Origin: an uncultured Candidatus Saccharibacteria bacterium
GTDB lineage: Bacteria > Patescibacteriota > Minisyncoccia > Phycocordibacterales > JAACPR01
Direction: 5' to 3'
Assembly (NCBI GenBank): GCA_964630375.1
Contig: CAZVRT010000003.1
Coordinates: 41,972 to 105,971, forward strand
Length of the DNA: 64,000 nucleotides
In this document: positions 1-35,670 of the stretch, piece after piece
How the letters are laid out: each line of letters begins with the position of its first letter
Numbering within the stretch: position 1 is the stretch's first letter
Translations under genes and position numbers: made by a program
Notes under the pieces: model-generated
What the model was told of the DNA's origin: nothing
Databases searched by the model: none
The model's input: the letters and a program-made list of their open reading frames with translations, nothing else

Positions 1-2730
1 GCAAAAACTTCGGGGCTTTTTCCATTGAATCAATAATTTCATCACTTGTTGGAAGTTTCTTTGTATATAGATATTCTCCAACTAATTGCTTTAATTTTTC
101 ATCTGAAATATTCTCTTCATTTGCAAGATTGTGAATCATTTTAAAACGTTCTGTATTCCAAAAACCATCAAAATAATTCTCAACGCTTGAATTTTGAGGA
201 ATATTTGGCAAATGATCTTCAATAAATTTTTTGATTAAATCTTTCTTTTTTCTAAGTTGAATATCTCTATCAAATATTTTCAAAATATCGTCTGTTTTCT
301 TTTTTCTAACATCATCAGAAGTAATATCTCTCAATCCTGCAATCAATTGTATGATATAATCAAAGTTAATTATATCTTTTAGAGTGAGTTCTATTTCAAA
401 ATCAATTTCATCTAAAATTGACTCTCTGTACCTTTCATCAGTTTTTCTTTCTTGATAAATGTCTAAATACTTACTTTGATAATCATAAAATTCTTGTTCA
501 GAAATTCCTAAATCATTAAAATTAAATTCTGCATAAGTTTCTAATGAAGATTTTATTCTCAATAAATCTCTAAAATCTTTAATAAAATCAGCTTTTTCTT
601 CTTCACCTCTTAAATCATCTACCGAATCAATTGTTGGAACTTTTTCTTTCAAAGATTTTAATTTCTCTTCAAAATCAATTTTCTGAGTTTCGTATGGTTT
701 TTTAAACACAACCTCTTTTGCATTCTCATCACCAAACAAAGCCAGCGCCTTATCTGTCGCCTCTTTTAAATTTCTAAAAGAAACAATATTTCCGTGAGGT
801 TTATCAGAACTTAGAAGTCTATTTGTTCTTGAATAAGCTTGAATCAATCCGTGATATTTTAAATTTTTATCAACATACAAAGTATTTAAAAACGGGCTAT
901 CAAAACCAGTCAGAAACATATTTACCACCAAAATTAAATCTATCTCTTTATTCTTAACTCGCTTTTGAACATCTCGATAATAATCATAAAAAATATTTGT
1001 AGAAAAATTAGTATTAAATTCTTGGTTATAATCCTTTATACAATCTTCAAGAAAATCTCTAGAATGTTGATTTATAGAATCTTCTTCGTCCAAGAAAATA
1101 TCGCCGTCCAACACATCAGGACTTTCATCTTCATTTGCTTGATATGTAAAAATTGTTGCGATTTTAAAATCATCAGACTTCAATTCTTTTAATTTTTTAT
1201 AATATTTTTTCAAAACATCTACGGACGAAACAGCAAATATTGCGTTAAACTTTCCATCTTTAGTTTTTCGATTCCAGTCACTCAAAATATATTCGGAAAT
1301 TTTTCCAATCCGCATATCACTTTCTAAAACTTCTCTTGAATTAATATCATCAACTAAAATATCTGTTTCAATCTGTTCATTTGAAATTATATCGGAATCT
1401 TTCTTTGTATATTTACCAACATACTCAACCGCAAAGCCAAGAACATTATTATCTGAAATTGCATTTGTAATAATATATTTATGCAAACAGTCACCAAAAA
1501 TATCTTTTGTTGTAGATTTTTGAATATTATTTTCAGCAAAAATTGGTGTTCCTGTAAATCCAAAAAGTTGAGATTGTGCAAAAAAGTTTTTTATCTTTGT
1601 GTGAGTTTTTCCAAAATGACCACGATGACATTCATCAAAAATAATCACAACTTTTTTATCTTTTAAATATTCAAGTTCTTTAGAAAATCTATTTTTACTT
1701 ACAGCCAATTCAAGCTTTTGTATAGTTGTAACAATAAGTTTTCGTTTTTGATCTTGCAATTGAGTCACAAGACTTCTTGTGTAATTTGTTCCATCAACAG
1801 AACCATCCGAAAATGAATTGAACTCTTTTGTTGTTTGAATATCTAAATCTTTTCTATCTACAACAAATAAAACTTTTTCAATTTCTGGCATCCTAGAAAG
1901 AATCTGGCTTGTTTTGTAAGAAGTAAGAGTTTTTCCCGAACCTGTTGTATGCCAAATATATCCATTTTTATTTGAATTTTTTACTCTTTCTTCTATGGCT
2001 TTTACCGCATAATATTGATATGGACGCAAAATCATTGGCGCTTGTTTCGCTTCTGCCAAAACAATATGTTCAGCTATAATTTCTGACAAAAAACATTTTT
2101 CCAAAAATACATTTGTAAACTCATTTAGATTTGTAATTTTTTTATTTTCTTTATCCGTCCAATAAAAAGTTTGTTCAAAATTTTGCTTTGGATTGTTTGA
2201 AAAATATTTTGTGTTTACTCCGTTTGAAATAACAAATATTTGTATGTATTCAAATAATGAATTTGAATATGAGTGTTTGTGATATCTTTGAATTTGATTA
2301 AAAGCCTCTTTCATTTCAAGTCCACGACGCTTCAATTCAATTTGCACCAATGGCAATCCGTTTATAAGTAATGTCACATCGTATCTGTTTGCATATCTTC
2401 CCTCTTGAGAAATTTGTTGAGCAACTTGATATTCATTTCTACACCATTGTTCGGTATTAAAAAATCTCATAGAAAAAGTTGTTTCGTTATCTCTTTTTAA
2501 ATTAAACCTATCTCGCAACGATTTTGCTTTGTAGAATCTGTCTCCTTTTAAAAGATGATTATAAATTTTCTCAAATTCCGGTTCAGAAAAAGTTGTTTCA
2601 TTAAAAATCTCGAGCTGTTTTTTAAGATTTTGCTCAAGGCTTTTTGAATCCGGCAAAACAACATACTCAAAACCACCTGTTTTAAGGTTTTCAATTAATT
2701 GCTGTTCGAGCTGTTGTTCGGATTGGGACA
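1..2730 (-). CDS. hsdR: Type I restriction enzyme R subunit (HsdR), N-terminal about 910 aa. The gene runs off the window start and is not in the ORF track.
   Basis: My own minus-strand translation starts with ATG at 2728-2730 (MSQSEQQLEQQ...). It contains Walker A HTTGSGKTLTS and the DEAD-box-like VVIIFDECHRG. No stop codon occurs before the window edge. Confidence 0.85.
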
Positions 2731-26057: not shown

Positions 26058-26155
26058 AATATTTCGCTAAATATCGCGTTCCAGTACTTTATCAAATTTG
26101 ACGAAGTTTATCAATATTAAACCAAACTTGTCCCGAGGGGCAGAATTGAACTGCC

Positions 26156-26229
26156 GACCTTAGCTTTATGAGTGCTACGCTCTAACCAACTGAGCTACCT
26201 CGGGGTGCATTTAATCAATGCAAAAACAC
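26156..26229 (-). tRNA. tRNA with a CAT anticodon (elongator Met or Ile2)
   Basis: Acceptor CCCGAGG / CCTCGGG, anticodon loop CTCATAA, T-loop TTCAATT. 74 nt. Confidence 0.75.
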
Positions 26230-29768: not shown

Positions 29769-29807
29769 CAAACTTTGTTAAGTTTTAGAGGATTGTTAAA
29801 GCAAAAC

Positions 29808-29835
29808 AAAAAGCCGCCCAAAGGGCGGCTTTTTG
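29808..29835. terminator. Bidirectional intrinsic terminator
   Basis: aaaaagccgccc aaa gggcggcttttt. It serves both the plus-strand gene ending at 29768 and the minus-strand tRNA-fMet gene. Confidence 0.7.
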
Positions 29836-29853
29836 TTTTGCTCTATTTTCTTG

Positions 29854-30138
29854 TTGCGGGGCCCGGAATTGCACCGGGGTCTAGAGGTTATGCTTACTAC
29901 TATGATTTTCATCACCACAATTGTGTTTGTAGTCTGGACTATGCCATCACCCTCTTTTTAAAAGTAGGGTGTCTACCGTCTAGTCTCTACACCTTCAAGT
30001 CATTTAGACAAGCTTGGCTCGGCATTGCCAACCTGTATAAGGTAAGGTTTCACCGAATTTGGCAGATTCTCAATAAAAATTTCTTTTTATTGGGCCCTTA
30101 AATTTGAGCCTCTCGAGGTACTACTCCTCCACCCCGCG
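29854..30138 (-). tRNA. Initiator tRNA-fMet (CAT) gene split by a group I intron. Exon 1 is 30107-30138, exon 2 is 29854-29892.
   Basis: Joined exons give CGCGGGGTGGAGGAGTAGTACCTCGAGAGGCT|CATAACCTCTAGACCCCGGTGCAATTCCGGGCCCCGCAA. C1-A72 mismatch, A11:U24 pair, anticodon loop CUCAUAA. The 5' exon is very similar to E. coli tRNA-fMet. Confidence 0.75.
29893..30106 (-). mobile_element. Group I self-splicing intron (214 nt) in the tRNA-fMet anticodon loop
   Basis: 5' splice site after a U; IGS GGGCC; P2 hairpin. P element AAATTCGG (30047-30060) and Q element AATGCCGAGCC (30016-30026). R element GAGACTAGACGG (29976-29987), P8 hairpin CACCCT..AGGGTG, S element CATAGTCCAGAC (29932-29943). P7 pairs GACUA with UAGUC. 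Terminal omega-G. Confidence 0.7.
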
Positions 30139-30169: not shown

Positions 30170-30178
30170 ATTATAACA
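30170..30178 (-). promoter_or_regulatory. Extended -10 element (TGTTATAAT) upstream of the tRNA-fMet gene
   Basis: The minus strand reads tgTtaTAATc about 31 nt upstream of tRNA position 1. This implies a processed leader. Confidence 0.3.
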
Positions 30179-30255: not shown

Positions 30256-30936
30256 ATGTCTGATACCAAAAATAAAGAAAAAGCAATCTATTTAAGAAAA
30301 CAAGGTTTTAGCATTAACGATATATCTAAAAAATTAAACAAAAATAAAAGCACTATCAGTTATTGGTGCAGAGACATTAAACTAACAAATAAACAAATTA
30401 AAATTATTCAAGAAAAAATAATTACAGGAGGACAAAAAGGTTCATTGATCAGATCAAAGAAACTGCAAATTGACAGAAAAATTAAAAACAAAAAATATTC
30501 AGATTTAGGCAAATCAGATTTGGGAAAAATATCAAAAAGAGATTTGTTTATGATTGGATTGGCTTTGTATTGGGGTGAAGGATATAAAAAAGGAAATTAT
30601 GAATTTGGTTTTACAAACAGTGATCCTAGAATTATAAAAACATTTTTAACATGGTTAAAAGAAATTTATGAAATATACGAAGATAAGTTTATTCTTAGGG
30701 TTTCTATAAATCAATTACACAAACATAGAGAAAAACAAATCATCAATTTTTGGCAAAAAATTACAAAAACTCAGAAATCACAATTTACAAAAACTAGTTT
30801 TATAAAAACTGAACCTAAAAAACAATATAAAATAAACAATGACTATTATGGAACTTTGAGAGTAAAAGTTCGTAATGGCGCAAATTTACGCAGGAGAATA
30901 ATGGGCTCACTAGAAAAAATTTCAGAAATTATTTAA
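30256..30936 (+). CDS. Free-standing LAGLIDADG-type homing endonuclease with an N-terminal HTH
   Basis: The dodecapeptide-like motif LFMIGLALYWGEGYKKG, followed by YEFGFTNSDPRIIKTFLTWLKEIY, resembles single-motif LAGLIDADG enzymes. The N-terminal IYLRKQGFSINDISKKLNKNKSTISYW is a resolvase-type HTH. Confidence 0.55.
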   Translation: MSDTKNKEKAIYLRKQGFSINDISKKLNKNKSTISYWCRDIKLTNKQIKIIQEKIITGGQKGSLIRSKKLQIDRKIKNKKYSDLGKSDLGKISKRDLFMIGLALYWGEGYKKGNYEFGFTNSDPRIIKTFLTWLKEIYEIYEDKFILRVSINQLHKHREKQIINFWQKITKTQKSQFTKTSFIKTEPKKQYKINNDYYGTLRVKVRNGANLRRRIMGSLEKISEII

Positions 30937-31940
30937 ATGAAATAAAATTCTTCAAAGACTTGCCGATACAAATCAATTACTCTTTCAGCTTCAGATTTTG
31001 AAAATAGAAAATCCCCTCCTCTGTGCGCAATGTGATTTCTAATTTTGTGAGCTTCCCAAGCTTTATTCAAAGTAATAAAGTCACTTTCTTCAATTTTCTT
31101 CAGCCTATCACCAATTGAGTCGCCTTCGTATCCCATTCTGATAAGCATTTCATCAAGAATAATATCAGCTTCAATAATTGCCTGTCGCCAATCACTTGAA
31201 GATGAAGATTGAATCAAATTTTGTACACGCACCCATCTTTCATTTTTTGGACCAGTTGGAGTTTGTTCTTCAACTTCAAAAGAAAATCCTAATGCACTTG
31301 CATCTCCTGTCGGCAAATTTTCAGGCAATCCCAAACTCGCCAAACTAACAGGCTCAGATTCTTGTTGATATTTTTCTTTCATCTTTCTTTCCAAAGATAA
31401 TTCTTGAAGTTCTTTTTTACTATTTATCAAAGAAACTGCTTTCTTTTGTTTTTTAGAAATATGATAAATCAACAACAAAAATATTAGAGCCAAAATCAAA
31501 CCAATCGGTCTAAAAATATCCAAGAAAATTGGAAAAATATTTAAAGCTCGAAACAAACCAACATTACTTGTGATATCTTTCGCCTCTACCCAACCATCAG
31601 GAATTTTTTGATAATCAATTCGATACCAATGTCTTCCAAAAGCTTCAACAGGACCTTCCAAAATTTGTCCGATGGCTCTTTTTGATTGCTCACCAATTAT
31701 TGCACCGGCTGGCACTTGTCGAACTTTTATATCTGTAATATTTGCAATTCTTTTTCCTATTGCTAAATCACCAACTGGCAAAATTCTTAAATCACTTGAG
31801 GTGTTTCCAATTTCTAAATTTTGCTCTTCAACTTTTGAATTAAATTTATCAACATAAAATCCAAGAAGAAACACAATGAAAATCATTGCGTAAACACCAT
31901 ATATCAATCCGTTATCAGCACCAGTTGGTTTGTCTGCCAT
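30933..31940 (-). CDS. Two-TM membrane protein with a C-terminal HEPN/DUF4145-like motif
   Basis: TM segments IYGVYAMIFIVFLLGFY and IGLILALIFLLLIY. The C-terminus has AWEAHKIRNHIAHRGG (RN..aH, Rx4H). Confidence 0.35.
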   Translation of the reverse strand: MADKPTGADNGLIYGVYAMIFIVFLLGFYVDKFNSKVEEQNLEIGNTSSDLRILPVGDLAIGKRIANITDIKVRQVPAGAIIGEQSKRAIGQILEGPVEAFGRHWYRIDYQKIPDGWVEAKDITSNVGLFRALNIFPIFLDIFRPIGLILALIFLLLIYHISKKQKKAVSLINSKKELQELSLERKMKEKYQQESEPVSLASLGLPENLPTGDASALGFSFEVEEQTPTGPKNERWVRVQNLIQSSSSSDWRQAIIEADIILDEMLIRMGYEGDSIGDRLKKIEESDFITLNKAWEAHKIRNHIAHRGGDFLFSKSEAERVIDLYRQVFEEFYFI

Positions 31941-33350
31941 CTACCTTATTGTCTCAAATTTTTTACCAATCTCAAATAGTTTTTTCTCATTATAATGGCT
32001 CGAAATAAATTGAATACCTACAGGAAGTTTTTTTCCATCTCTTTCAACTTCTTTTCCAGGAACAGAGATTGCCGGAACTCCTGCAACATTGGCAACTACT
32101 GTAAAGATATCGTTTAGATACATTTTCAAAGGATCATTTGATTTTTCACCGATTTTAAAAGCTGGAGTAGGCGCAACTGGCATTGCAATAATATCAACAC
32201 CTTTAAAAACTTCATCAAGATTTTGGCGAATAATATTTCGAACTTGCCAAGCTTTTCGGTAGAATTGATCAGCATAACCAGCAGATAAAACATAAGTTCC
32301 CAACATTATTCTTCGTTTCACTTCTGCTCCCAAAAGTTGCCCGCGAGTTTTCATATATGTATCAAGCAAATCTTTTCCTTCAATTCTTTCTCCAAATTTC
32401 ACTCCATCATATCGAGACATATTTGATGAAACTTCTGCTGGTACCAAAACATAATAAACCGCAAGAGAATATTCCACGCTCGGAATTTTAATATCTTTGA
32501 TTTCATATCCAGCTTCTTTTAGTTTTTGAATTCCGTCATTAAAAGATTGCAAAACATCTTCATCAATTCCTTCTTTCAAAAAACCATAAGGCACTCCGAT
32601 TGTTTTTACACTTCCGTCATTATTTAAATGACTGTGACTTGTTGAATCCAATTTATCTTCACCTCGTACTGCATCAAAAAGAATTTCTACATCATCAACT
32701 GTTTTTGCAGTTGGACTTATTACATCAAAAGAACTTGCCATTGCAATCAATCCATATCTAGAAACGCTTCCGTATGTTGGCTTCAAACCAACAACTCCAC
32801 AAAAACTTGCAGGCTCTCGAATAGAACCACCAGTATCAGAACCAAAAGAACCCAGGGCCATGTCGGCAGCTATAGAAGCAGTCGCACCTCCTGAAGAGCC
32901 GCCAGCAACTCTTTCTGTGTCAACTGGATTTTTTGTTACACCAAAAGCACTGTTTTCTGTTGAAGCTCCTTGTGCAAATTCATCAGTATTTGTTTTTCCT
33001 AAATACACAGGCTTATGCTCATCTAATTTCAAAATTGCAGTAGCAGAATATGGAGCAAAATAATTTTCTAAAATTTTAGAACCGGCAGTTGTCTTTCGAC
33101 CTGTCATACACATATTGTCTTTAATAGAAATTGGAATACCTGTCAGCAAAGTCGCTTCGCCTGCGTCAATTTTTTTCTGCGCTTCTTCAGCTTGCGAGAT
33201 AACATCATCAAAAACAGTTATATATGCATTTATGTCAGAATTTTTTTCTTGAATATTTTTCAAATACGCATTTGCCAAATCAACTGCTGAAATTTCTTTC
33301 GCAACCAATTTTTCATGAGCTTCTTTTATTGTCAGTTTAGTTAGATCCAT
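31941..33350 (-). CDS. gatA: Glu-tRNA(Gln)/Asp-tRNA(Asn) amidotransferase subunit A
   Basis: Amidase signature GGSSGGATASIAADMALGSFGSDTGGSIREPASF. Confidence 0.9.
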   Translation of the reverse strand: MDLTKLTIKEAHEKLVAKEISAVDLANAYLKNIQEKNSDINAYITVFDDVISQAEEAQKKIDAGEATLLTGIPISIKDNMCMTGRKTTAGSKILENYFAPYSATAILKLDEHKPVYLGKTNTDEFAQGASTENSAFGVTKNPVDTERVAGGSSGGATASIAADMALGSFGSDTGGSIREPASFCGVVGLKPTYGSVSRYGLIAMASSFDVISPTAKTVDDVEILFDAVRGEDKLDSTSHSHLNNDGSVKTIGVPYGFLKEGIDEDVLQSFNDGIQKLKEAGYEIKDIKIPSVEYSLAVYYVLVPAEVSSNMSRYDGVKFGERIEGKDLLDTYMKTRGQLLGAEVKRRIMLGTYVLSAGYADQFYRKAWQVRNIIRQNLDEVFKGVDIIAMPVAPTPAFKIGEKSNDPLKMYLNDIFTVVANVAGVPAISVPGKEVERDGKKLPVGIQFISSHYNEKKLFEIGKKFETIR

Positions 33351-33645
33351 TGTTGTCGTTGTTTAGAATTTTTTGTACTTGAATAAAATTATCTTTTGTT
33401 TTTGGAGCACAATCTAAAATTGCTTTTGTATTAGTTTCTGGCTCATCCGGATTTTCATCTTCTCGGAAAATATTTCTAGCATCAGAACTTTCAATAATGT
33501 CTGAAGAATTGTCAGAAACGGCAGTATTTATTTGTTCAATATATCCCAAAATAGAACCAATTTCTTGACTATATTTCCCTACTTCTTCATCTGTAAGCTC
33601 CAGTCGAGCCAATTTAGCGAGATCTAAAATTTGTTCTTTATTCAT
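33337..33645 (-). CDS. gatC: Amidotransferase subunit C
   Basis: 102 aa. ILDLAKLARLELTDEEVGKYSQEIGSILGYIEQ. Overlaps gatA. Confidence 0.8.
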   Translation of the reverse strand: MNKEQILDLAKLARLELTDEEVGKYSQEIGSILGYIEQINTAVSDNSSDIIESSDARNIFREDENPDEPETNTKAILDCAPKTKDNFIQVQKILNNDNNGSN

Positions 33646-33660
33646 AAAGGCTATACTAGC

Positions 33661-35670
<2,010 letters not shown>

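Follow-up and report, generated by a model that had tools for sequence, protein, structure and literature searches.

In a 64,000-nucleotide stretch of DNA from an uncultured Candidatus Saccharibacteria bacterium (here called the window), positions 29854 to 30138 of the minus strand carry what resemble the two parts of an initiator tRNA, separated by 214 nucleotides. The questions raised by this locus are whether the block is an interrupted tRNA gene, what interrupts it, and whether the interrupting sequence is still likely to be removed. We consider it very probable (about 0.9) that a CPR/Patescibacteria organism has its initiator tRNA gene here, and that a compact, ORF-less group I ribozyme with IC3-type architecture splits this gene between U33 and C34. 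This intron arrangement is already known, and the window adds one more case of a 33/34 intron in tRNA-fMet. The part worth following is the open reading frame (ORF) that lies beside it.

The interrupted tRNA gene and its surroundings

The locus comprises the following elements, in the coordinates of the window.

29800-29842, minus strand (placed on the plus strand by the scan): symmetric hairpin resembling an intrinsic terminator, AAAAAGCCGCCC-TTT-GGGCGGCTTTTTGTTTT
29854-29892, minus strand: 3' exon of tRNA-fMet, positions 34-73, 39 nt, CATAACCTCTAGACCCCGGTGCAATTCCGGGCCCCGCAA; CAU anticodon, 3' half of the anticodon stem, variable loop of 4 nt, acceptor strand and A73
29893-30106, minus strand: ORF-less group I intron, 214 nt, beginning CAAATTTAAGGGCC and ending TAGTAGTAAG (RF00028, P1-P9, covariation)
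30107-30138, minus strand: 5' exon of tRNA-fMet, positions 1-33, 32 nt, CGCGGGGTGGAGGAGTAGTACCTCGAGAGGCT; acceptor strand (C1), D-arm (A11:U24), 5' half of the anticodon stem, then C32 and U33
30170-30178, minus strand: possible extended -10 element, TGtTATAAT, read by eye
30256-30936, plus strand: divergent 226-aa ORF, 117 nt from the 5' end of the tRNA; helix-turn-helix at the N-terminus, LAGLIDADG-like domain (GLALYWGEGYK) at the C-terminus

An earlier note on this DNA had interpreted the block as a gene for tRNA-fMet with a group I intron of 214 nt inside it, and two observations agree with it. The covariance-model search that the note had proposed finds Intron_gpI (RF00028) at 29915-30116 on the minus strand, over model positions 1-253 (the full model), with 76.8 bits and E=9.7e-18, above the gathering score of 50. 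Moreover, when the exons are joined at 30107/29892, ARAGORN recognizes the spliced sequence as a 72-base tRNA-Met(cat) with a C1xA72 mismatch. The T-arm, CCCGG-TGCAATT-CCGGG, lies in the 3' exon, which does not encode CCA and is identical to that of another Patescibacteria metagenome-assembled genome (MAG), L099. An identical copy of the locus is present in an independent assembly (L001).

The terminator-like hairpin begins 12 nt past the 3' end of the tRNA. On the other side, the possible -10 element is located 32 nt upstream of tRNA position 1, and a consensus scan found no full sigma-70 promoter site. The gene order ligA-gatC-gatA-335-aa gene-tRNA-fMet is common to about 20 CPR MAG loci, and those homologues of the neighbouring ORF that carry a name are from Patescibacteria, Parcubacteria or Paceibacterota. 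Both observations bear out an earlier suggestion that pointed to CPR bacteria.

Structure of the intron

Every element that the earlier note had listed was found at its minus-strand position. The P, Q, R and S elements, the P7 pairing GACUA/UAGUC, the P2 and P8 hairpins, the IGS and omega-G all kept their places when the fold was re-derived as helices P1 to P9, as follows.

30093-30110, minus strand: P1, in which exon G30-G31-C32-U33 and intron C1 pair with the guide GGGCC (30093-30097) across an 8-nt loop
30072-30091, minus strand: P2 hairpin of 8 bp with a GAAA tetraloop at 30080-30083; compensatory changes at 8 of 8 pairs
30061-30066, minus strand: 5' strand of P3, partner 29972-29977; 99.7% of cells paired, compensatory changes at 4 of 6 pairs
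29992-30057, minus strand: P4-P6 span (Rfam and covariation, helices 4-7), with P4 formed by 30052-30057 and 30018-30023; contains the P element (AAATTCGG) and the Q element (GCCGAGCC)
30028-30047, minus strand: P5/P5a hairpin
29992-30017, minus strand: P6/P6a hairpin
29981-29985, minus strand: 5' strand of P7, GACUA, inside the R element GAGACTAGACGG; 100% paired, partner UAGUC at 29937-29941 inside the S element
29949-29970, minus strand: P8 hairpin; compensatory changes at 9 of 9 pairs, outer five pairs well kept
29896-29933, minus strand: P9 three-way junction, composed of P9 (ACUAC/GUAGU) and the P9a and P9b hairpins (covariation, helices 10-12); GAAA tetraloop of P9b at 29907-29910
29893, minus strand: omega-G (G214), the last intron nucleotide; G in all parsed family members

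In the window copy, all 63 pairs of this hand-drawn structure are canonical, and all core nucleotides that are invariant in the alignment are kept. P7, the guanosine-binding helix, is pseudoknotted with P3, and its last pair varies among AU, UA, GC and CG.

Covariation was assessed by using 54 homologous sequences with pairwise intron identity of at most 88%. The 13 drawn helices fit these homologues: 91.1% of cells pair, compared with 33-44% when the partners are slid by one to three columns, and compensatory changes occur at 41 of the 63 pairs. The covariation score is 0.447, versus 0.08-0.11 for the slid partners (1-3 columns) and 0.173 for shuffled ones; none of 500 shuffles attains 0.447.

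The splice-site wobble U33.G11 lies in P1, where U.G is present in 54 of 54 aligned homologues, as is C-G. Because U.G marks the 5' splice site and a G terminates the intron, the junction is fixed uniquely. The earlier note had advised that its U33/C34 junction be compared with known tRNA-fMet introns. The same junction occurs in 112 of 112 parsed public initiator-tRNA loci, in the form ...GGCT / intron...G / CATAAYC, and these loci include at least 30 CPR (Patescibacteria) genomes. The published survey concurs, with 33/34 the common insertion site in tRNA-fMet (Nakagawa et al. 2026, PMC13011429).

Relatives and subgroup

As the earlier note had said, group I introns in tRNA-fMet are established in cyanobacteria and some other bacteria, and the arrangement seen here is well documented. 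The cyanobacterial examples (Synechocystis PCC 6803, Scytonema, Gloeobacter) are attributed to Biniszkiewicz et al. (1994) and to Paquin et al. (1997), both cited in PMC8450103 and PMC13011429. They share with the window intron the host gene, the 33/34 site, the core sequence and the P9 three-way junction, and cyanobacterial members (from Nostoc, Scytonema, Trichodesmium, the loci L047, L064 and L066, and others) align over the whole core. However, the cyanobacterial copies have an additional hairpin placed after the 5' splice site and before the guide, giving an L1 of about 50 nt rather than 8 nt, and a P10 of two or three base pairs rather than one. Some of them also encode the PD-(D/E)XK endonuclease I-Ssp6803I, whereas the window intron is ORF-less. 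The highest identity to the window copy among the sampled relatives is about 72%.

The IC3 introns of Azoarcus tRNA-Ile and Anabaena tRNA-Leu resemble the window intron in their size (about 200-250 nt), in their GNRA tetraloops on P2 and P9 and in the absence of P5abc. As a lead only, the core strings CAAAUUCGG.GAAACC, GCCGAGCCAAGC and GAAGGUGUAGAGACUAGACGG are presumably common to these introns and the window copy. They differ in host tRNA and insertion site: the Azoarcus tRNA-Ile intron is inserted at 36/37, not 33/34. The tRNA-Leu intron site is 34/35 (PMC13011429).

The 3' domain of the window intron looks IC3-type. P2 is present and P5abc absent, GNRA tetraloops cap P2 and P9, and P9 forms a three-way junction. 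The P9/P9a/P9b layout is that of the introns labelled IC3 in Table S5 of PMC13011429, and the junction with its GAAA loop is common to the window intron, at least 30 CPR MAG introns and those IC3-labelled introns. Global identity to the labelled introns fails to separate subgroups (0.75-0.79 for IC3, 0.72-0.76 for IA or other), and the subgroup reading therefore rests on 3'-domain architecture.

In the survey of 95 complete genomes, no Patescibacteria tRNA intron was IC (PMC13011429). That survey reported two Met(CAU) 33/34 introns in Microgenomatia, which sets the base rate of interrupted initiator genes at 2 of 95 complete genomes. They have a simple P9 hairpin, unlike the P9/P9a/P9b junction of the window intron. 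The Patescibacteria tRNA introns of the survey share the phylum-level host of the window intron. With draft genomes included, our results extend the survey: introns with IC3-type architecture are present in tRNA genes of Patescibacteria, in at least 30 CPR MAGs.

The neighbouring open reading frame

More than 700 proteins make up the unannotated CPR family of which the ORF at 30256-30936 is a member. Homologues adjoin an intron-bearing tRNA-fMet gene in nine CPR genome loci, and the presence of the ORF is patchy (9 of about 34 intron-carrying CPR loci). Among metagenome sequences, all 70 informative loci have a homologue next to an initiator tRNA gene, and 67 of these 70 genes are interrupted. 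A stem-based parser recovered 13 loci that had escaped ARAGORN, so the two sets were merged. In the 59 divergent loci, the median distance between ORF and tRNA is 95 nt. The ORF accompanies introns at 33/34 and at 36/37, as well as three uninterrupted genes, all three of which have C33. The earlier note had overlooked this tie between the adjoining ORF and the split tRNA gene.

The C-terminal domain of the ORF is homologous to ORFs inside 33/34 introns (hhalign probability 97.7%, E=1.9e-12). E108, in the GEG of YWGEGYK, is invariant in 43 sequences, and the intron-encoded relatives carry TEGD. The fold may bear a weak resemblance to LAGLIDADG, with the secondary-structure order a-b-a-b-a-b-b-a in place of the textbook a-bb-a-bb-a, and the position of the helix-turn-helix at the N-terminus distinguishes the ORF from LAGLIDADG endonucleases and WhiA. 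Sequence searches of Pfam, NCBIfam, PHROGs and PDB matched only helix-turn-helix families, with no LAGLIDADG profile match, and a Foldseek search of PDB gave no significant match.

We tentatively propose, at somewhat less than even odds, that the ORF is a free-standing homing endonuclease from the family of some 33/34-intron ORFs. Such an enzyme could spread an ORF-tRNA-intron unit, with the intron shielding the host copy. A fuller proposal, which we hold with the same reserve, is that the intron and the ORF form a two-part mobile element. The ORF product, probably a homodimeric LAGLIDADG-like protein, would cleave an uninterrupted tRNA-fMet gene at the pseudo-palindromic DNA of its anticodon stem-loop, and a 33/34 or 36/37 intron, or C33, would protect against it. 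Its putative target would be an intron-less tRNA-fMet gene, for example CTCGAGAGGCTCATAACCTCTAGAC.

Alternatively, the ORF might encode a transcription factor similar to WhiA, with the initiator tRNA gene under its control and the link to introns reflecting only a lineage effect. We regard this explanation as unlikely, given the homology of the C-terminal domain to ORFs within group I introns and the invariance of the acidic residue at the LAGLIDADG catalytic position. Two aspects of distribution also speak against it: presence among syntenic CPR loci is patchy, and the ORF moves with the tRNA gene into other neighbourhoods (for example, L167 versus L161).

The proposed two-part element resembles collaborative homing, in which an ORF-less intron is found with an endonuclease-like gene adjoining the interrupted gene, and other genomes encode relatives of that gene within the same intron. 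Known cases of collaborative homing concern phage protein-coding genes, whereas here the host is a cellular tRNA gene and the arrangement recurs in hundreds of CPR genomes. If the proposed element is real, CPR genomes would retain every stage of the proposed route toward a mobile intron. Bare introns are present at loci L099 and L085. An intron accompanied by a free-standing ORF occurs in the window and in the 67 metagenome loci noted earlier. At loci L048, L082, L108, L113 and L122, the ORF domain is located inside intron loop L1 in antisense orientation, with its stop codon across the 5' splice site. The ORF would then represent a new endonuclease family with a defined and universally conserved target, and the loci would provide a natural series for studying how free-standing endonucleases and ORF-less introns fuse into mobile introns. 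The survey in PMC13011429 sought endonuclease genes inside introns only, and free-standing ones are not mentioned there.

Proposed splicing pathway

From the observed sequence, family membership, covarying structure and insertion site of the intron, we infer that splicing takes place, and that it does so without protein. The precursor would consist of about 285 nt plus a leader and would end at the downstream hairpin terminator. The intron would fold into P1-P9, with the GAAA tetraloops of L2 and L9b presumably docking on P8 and P5 in the manner of the Azoarcus intron. Pairing of the guide GGGCC with the exon end GGCU would bring the U33.G11 wobble into the active site, and a free guanosine bound by P7 would attack 3' of U33. 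G214 would then occupy the guanosine site, and the freed 3'-OH of U33 would attack beyond G214, ligating U33 to C34 and restoring the loop CUCAUAA. RNase P, 3' trimming and CCA addition would finish the tRNA.

In the window, P10 consists of G10-C34 alone, whereas most relatives have two or three pairs. Since P10 is weak, the exons are probably aligned by the anticodon stem, as in the Anabaena pre-tRNA-Leu intron. Exon alignment through the anticodon stem is attributed to the Azoarcus tRNA-Ile and Anabaena tRNA-Leu introns (Zaug et al. 1993, as cited in PMC3984707), and Patescibacteria tRNA group I introns self-splice in vitro (PMC13011429).

It is conceivable that splicing occurs only with the assistance of a protein, and that the LAGLIDADG-like ORF is a maturase instead of, or besides, a DNA endonuclease. 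LAGLIDADG maturases of group I introns are established (I-AniI and bI3), the ORF nearly always adjoins an interrupted tRNA gene, and the weakness of P10 would fit a need for assistance. We nonetheless judge this quite improbable, because roughly three quarters of the CPR loci with the same intron type are without the ORF. Also, the ORF occurs with two different introns and with three uninterrupted genes, a pattern that is easier to reconcile with a protein that recognizes the tRNA gene than with one that recognizes a single ribozyme. IC3 tRNA introns are, in addition, generally self-sufficient in vitro; splicing of one served as the positive control in PMC13011429.

A further explanation is that the intron is a decayed, non-splicing remnant within a tRNA pseudogene, with another initiator gene elsewhere in the cell. 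Points in its favour are the weak P10, the replacement of the near-universal U55 by G55 in the T-loop and an anticodon stem with no more than two G-C pairs, and the view is limited to 64 kb of the genome. However, all helices are intact, all family-invariant nucleotides are kept, and ARAGORN and an Rfam scan found no second initiator tRNA within the 64-kb window. In 11 of 11 relatives, G55 changes together with the D-loop, which makes it a lineage trait that looks functional and not a sign of decay. We therefore consider decay highly improbable and retain the reading of an intact intron that probably splices itself.

Identity of the tRNA and its annotation

The tRNA carries a C1xA72 combination that is not a Watson-Crick pair, together with A11:U24 in a D-stem of GAGG/CCUC, and after splicing, its CAU anticodon would sit in the 7-nt loop CUCAUAA. 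The C1xA72 mismatch and A11:U24 are marks of bacterial initiators. A third feature departs from the pattern of E. coli tRNA-fMet, in which three G-C pairs close the anticodon stem: the consecutive pairs 29-31:39-41 of the window gene are A29-U41, G30-C40 and G31-C39, and only two of them are G-C. The same two-G-C stem is found in several CPR relatives (for example, L045 and L085) and is a lineage variant, so the gene is classified as an initiator by its other marks. That the exons instead belong to an elongator tRNA-Met or a tRNA-Ile2(CAU) is scarcely credible: although the CAU anticodon is common to all three tRNA classes and the base of the anticodon stem has just two G-C pairs, the two initiator marks are present, the acceptor CGCGGGG/CCCCGCA agrees with initiators from every phylum sampled, and a separate tRNA(CAU) with a paired 1:72 is located at 26131-26204.

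The earlier note had also raised the possibility that an alternative fold, such as tmRNA, would score better. An Rfam gathering scan of the whole window returns Intron_gpI and four tRNAs only, which disposes of tmRNA and of other RNA families.

Taken by itself, the intron is ordinary, and its practical worth lies in annotation. In intron mode on the unspliced DNA, ARAGORN finds the same tRNA body and a 214-nt intron, but sets the intron at position 36 and calls the gene Leu(caa). We rejected this splice site: the intron would end in T and a Leu(CAA) anticodon would stand on an initiator body, contrary to the U/omega-G rule and to the 112 homologues. ARAGORN missed or mis-called the window gene in both modes. 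Since standard tRNA finders treat the gene in this way, genomes of the lineage will seem to be without an initiator tRNA, and their completeness scores will drop. A Patescibacteria Met(CAU) gene with a 33/34 intron was likewise mis-called as Leu(CAA) by ARAGORN (PMC13011429, Table 1).

Splice junction and tRNA identity

The observation of an initiator tRNA-fMet gene split by a group I intron is confirmed, and its interpretation in the earlier note is supported. In itself the intron is ordinary, one more case of a known arrangement; the interest, which is moderate, lies in a linked ORF family and in an IC3-type intron in the candidate phyla radiation (CPR, Patescibacteria). The gene is divided as follows.

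30138-30107, minus strand: 5' exon, CGCGGGGTGGAGGAGTAGTACCTCGAGAGGCT
30106-29893, minus strand: 214-nt intron, beginning CAAATTTAAGGGCC and ending TAGTAGTAAG
29892-29854, minus strand: 3' exon, CATAACCTCTAGACCCCGGTGCAATTCCGGGCCCCGCAA

The Rfam group I intron model matches at full length at 29915-30116 (76.8 bits, gathering score 50, E=9.7e-18), and the Rfam scan of 29854-30138 gave no other family. Default ARAGORN detected no tRNA in this block. The joined exons, however, are recognized as tRNA-Met(cat) with a C1xA72 mismatch, a D-stem GAGG/CCUC (A11:U24), and the anticodon loop CUCAUAA and T-arm CCCGG-TGCAATT-CCGGG that had been read by eye. CCA is absent from the encoded gene. In group I introns, the 5' exon ends in a U paired with G, and the last intron nucleotide is G. 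Because both are required, the junction U33|C34 is uniquely fixed. ARAGORN's intron mode finds the same tRNA body and a 214-nt intron, but shifts the junction and reports Leu(caa), a mis-call also made for a Patescibacteria Met(CAU) gene (Nakagawa et al. 2026, PMC13011429 Table 1).

In a second tRNA(CAU) of the window, at 26131-26204 (-), positions 1 and 72 (1:72) pair, while the base of the anticodon stem contains the mismatch A31xA39, flagged as non-canonical in the Rfam alignment.

Insertion site and distribution

Relatives were sought with the pattern AGTCCRGACYACAAA-N25-55-GCATAAYC-N20-30-CCCGC, which returned at least 120 genome loci. Among the 120 listed, 112 were parsable, and all 112 read ...GGCT, then an intron ending in G, then CATAAYC. 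The survey PMC13011429 likewise gives 33/34 as the usual tRNA-fMet site and tabulates two Microgenomatia Met(CAU) introns there. Since parsed loci and survey concur, the U33|C34 junction, which the earlier note had wanted compared with known tRNA-fMet introns, is canonical. Introns of this type account for "missing" fMet genes in tRNAscan-SE output (PMC8450103). Hosts among the listed loci include Cyanobacteria (Nostoc, Scytonema, Trichodesmium), Nitrospirales, Omnitrophota, Rhodothermales and other Bacteroidota, Chloroflexota and Planctomycetia, together with at least ~30 CPR MAGs (Paceibacterota, Yanofsky-, Nomura-, Kaiser-, Vogel-, Harrison- and Berkelbacteria, and "Saccharibacteria").

Intron structure and covariation

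Helices P1-P9 were hand-drawn, guided by the Rfam alignment and the layout of IC3 introns.

P1: exon GGCU and intron C1 with guide GGGCC; U33.G11 wobble; 8-nt loop
P2: 8 bp, GAAA loop
P3: UCUGCC/GGUAGA
P4: UUCGGU/GCCGAG
P5/P5a: hairpin
P6/P6a: hairpin
P7: GACUA/UAGUC, pseudoknotted with P3
P8: hairpin
P9: three-way junction, P9b capped by GAAA, followed by AA and omega-G214

The drawing recovers the previously proposed P7, guide-exon pairing, P2 and P8 hairpins and omega-G, and all 63 drawn pairs are canonical in the window copy. This structure was projected onto a MAFFT alignment of 54 sequences, comprising the window and 53 relatives (introns of at most 290 nt, mutual intron identity below 88%; highest identity to the window within this set ~72%). 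Pairing is possible in 91.1% of cells, compared with 33-44% when partners are slid by 1-3 columns, and 41 of the 63 pairs show changes on both sides. The covariation score is 0.447, against 0.08-0.11 for slid and 0.173 for shuffled versions; none of 500 shuffles reaches it. Covariation involves P2, P3, P5, P6a, P8, P9a and P9b, and P7 is constant save for its last pair, which alternates AU/UA/GC/CG. Deriving the structure from one of the aligned sequences favors it over slid versions, but the gap to the controls and the compensatory changes far exceed that bias.

The 3' domain runs from AGACUACAAA through two hairpins, a small one and one capped by GAAA, to GUAGUAAG. It agrees with that of introns labelled IC3 in Table S5 of PMC13011429, whereas the two Microgenomatia Met introns have a simple P9 hairpin in place of the three-way junction. 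Because global identities do not separate IC3-labelled introns from other classes, the assignment to IC3, by architecture, is a structural call only. The survey found zero IC-type tRNA introns in 95 complete Patescibacteria genomes; given the window and the CPR MAG loci, sampling may explain this absence.

A linked ORF family

Divergent from the tRNA gene, and starting 117 nt from its 5' end, lies a 226-aa ORF.

30256-30936, plus strand: 226-aa ORF
30933-35667, minus strand: conserved stretch ligA-gatC-gatA-335-aa gene
Further family members among the compared public loci: L161-L248, L045, L056, L081, L098, L109, L116, L132, L139, L149

At its stop, the 335-aa gene shares 4 nt with the 3' end of the ORF; its protein, of unknown function, has no family match. 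The order ligA-gatC-gatA-335-aa gene-tRNA-fMet is common to ~20 CPR MAG loci (GatA identity 50-59%), and some syntenic relatives (for example, L099 and L085) have no ORF homologue. Judged by this synteny and by the named homologues of the ORF, the window probably belongs to a Parcubacteria/Paceibacteria-like member of the CPR.

Among the matches listed, a homologue adjoins an intron-bearing tRNA-fMet in 9 of ~34 CPR genome loci. An unbiased, protein-based metagenome scan gave 80 loci, 70 of them informative (at least ~400 nt upstream). An initiator tRNA gene adjoins the homologue in 70/70, and 67 of these genes carry a group I intron, 47 at 33/34 and 20 at 36/37. The 59 divergent metagenome pairs lie a median of 95 nt apart. 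In complete Patescibacteria genomes, Met(CAU) genes are interrupted at a base rate of 2/95 (PMC13011429). Each of the three uninterrupted partner genes carries C33, in the loop CCCAUAA.

U33 is near-universal in tRNAs. Ten initiator-type genes with CCCAUAA (L223, L225, L226, L232, L236, L238, L241, L242, L245, L246) lie upstream of an ORF homologue and share its strand; all but three, which are uninterrupted, have a 36/37 intron. This different intron (~250-290 nt, after U36, with R/S-like elements ..TTCAGAGACTATAATGG.. and ..ATAGTCCGGC..) occurs in CPR initiator genes at L167 (2527-2887, minus strand), where RF00028 at its gathering threshold missed it, and in L173, L179, L192, L203, L204, L206, L210, L216, L217, L222 and L233. 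Near a family copy in L221, ARAGORN reports a tRNA-Thr(GGU) at 1284-1595 (-) with a 236-nt intron at ~36/37, resembling the divergent Thr introns of PMC13011429. In 39 viral contigs (L002-L040, IMG/VR), IC3-type introns at 33/34 split tRNA(CAU) genes whose acceptor ends are not of the initiator type, and in L035 a partial ORF homologue adjoins the tRNA.

The family comprises over 700 proteins of about 225 aa, in which YWGEGYK, FTNSD, LRVSIN, QFTKTS and GTLRIKVR are invariant; named homologues belong to Patescibacteria, Parcubacteria, Lloydbacteria and Paceibacterota. Pfam finds an N-terminal HTH in the 226-aa protein and nothing else. The AlphaFold model (pLDDT 88) has HTH helices, a long helix and an alpha/beta domain, and a Foldseek search of it against PDB gave no significant match. 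This unannotated CPR family combines an N-terminal HTH with a domain that weakly resembles LAGLIDADG. A WhiA-like regulator would be an unlikely identity for the protein, and a maturase a very improbable one. We tentatively predict an endonuclease, with a probability of about 0.45.

Intron-encoded relatives bear on the endonuclease reading. Five 33/34 introns (L048, L082, L108, L113, L122) contain an antisense ORF of 152-158 aa (IGLxLWxTEGDKTQLSLANGNPxII...YWSxITNIPxSRFTKPYIKKD...GILRI), which hhalign matches to the C-terminal domain of the free-standing family (97.7% probability, E=1.9e-12, 107 columns). Its TGA stop lies opposite U33 and the two intron bases that follow, so the ORF occupies loop L1. 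In collaborative homing, an ORF-less intron adjoins an endonuclease-like gene whose relatives reside within the same intron elsewhere (PMC3984707); the window has the same pattern. PMC13011429 searched for endonucleases inside introns only and judged transfer limited.

Most long 33/34 introns carry a sense-strand I-Ssp6803I-like ORF. These ORFs (~150 aa, MDTKLKGDIAEQ..GDRLPYDL..VQVK, in introns of ~630-700 nt) look like I-Ssp6803I-type PD-(D/E)XK endonucleases and are spread over many phyla, including CPR (L055, L079, L101, L141; further loci L041, L043, L059, L062, L065, L069, L070, L074, L086-L088, L100, L111, L114, L124, L128, L133, L136, L144, L151, L159). In complete genomes, tRNA-fMet introns with such ORFs come from Cyanobacteriota only (PMC13011429).

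Proposed expression and splicing

Transcription probably starts from an extended -10-like TGtTATAAT at 30170-30178, read by eye (a promoter scan gave no sigma-70 site), and should end at a hairpin at 29800-29842. The putative ribozyme should perform the two standard transesterifications. P1 takes up G30 and G31, which puts it in competition with the lower part of the anticodon stem before splicing. P10 is G10-C34 only in the window; most relatives have UG or AUG ahead of GGGC. The exons would probably be aligned by the anticodon stem, a role established in the pre-tRNA-Leu intron of Anabaena (Zaug et al. 1993, as cited in PMC3984707). That the window intron splices, and that it needs no protein to do so, we infer.

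A tRNA elbow variant

U55 is near-universal in tRNAs. The window initiator has G55, with T-loop TGCAATT (29861-29867) and D-loop AGTAGTA (30119-30125). The D-loop is AGYAGYA without the GG18-19 doublet in 11/11 distinct initiators with a TGC T-loop, and the doublet is kept in all 66 with TTC. This looks like tertiary covariation within a CPR subgroup, with G18:U55 at the elbow replaced by A18:G55. Other loci with the TGC T-loop are L051, L098, L099, L105, L106, L122, L132, L139, L150 and L156.
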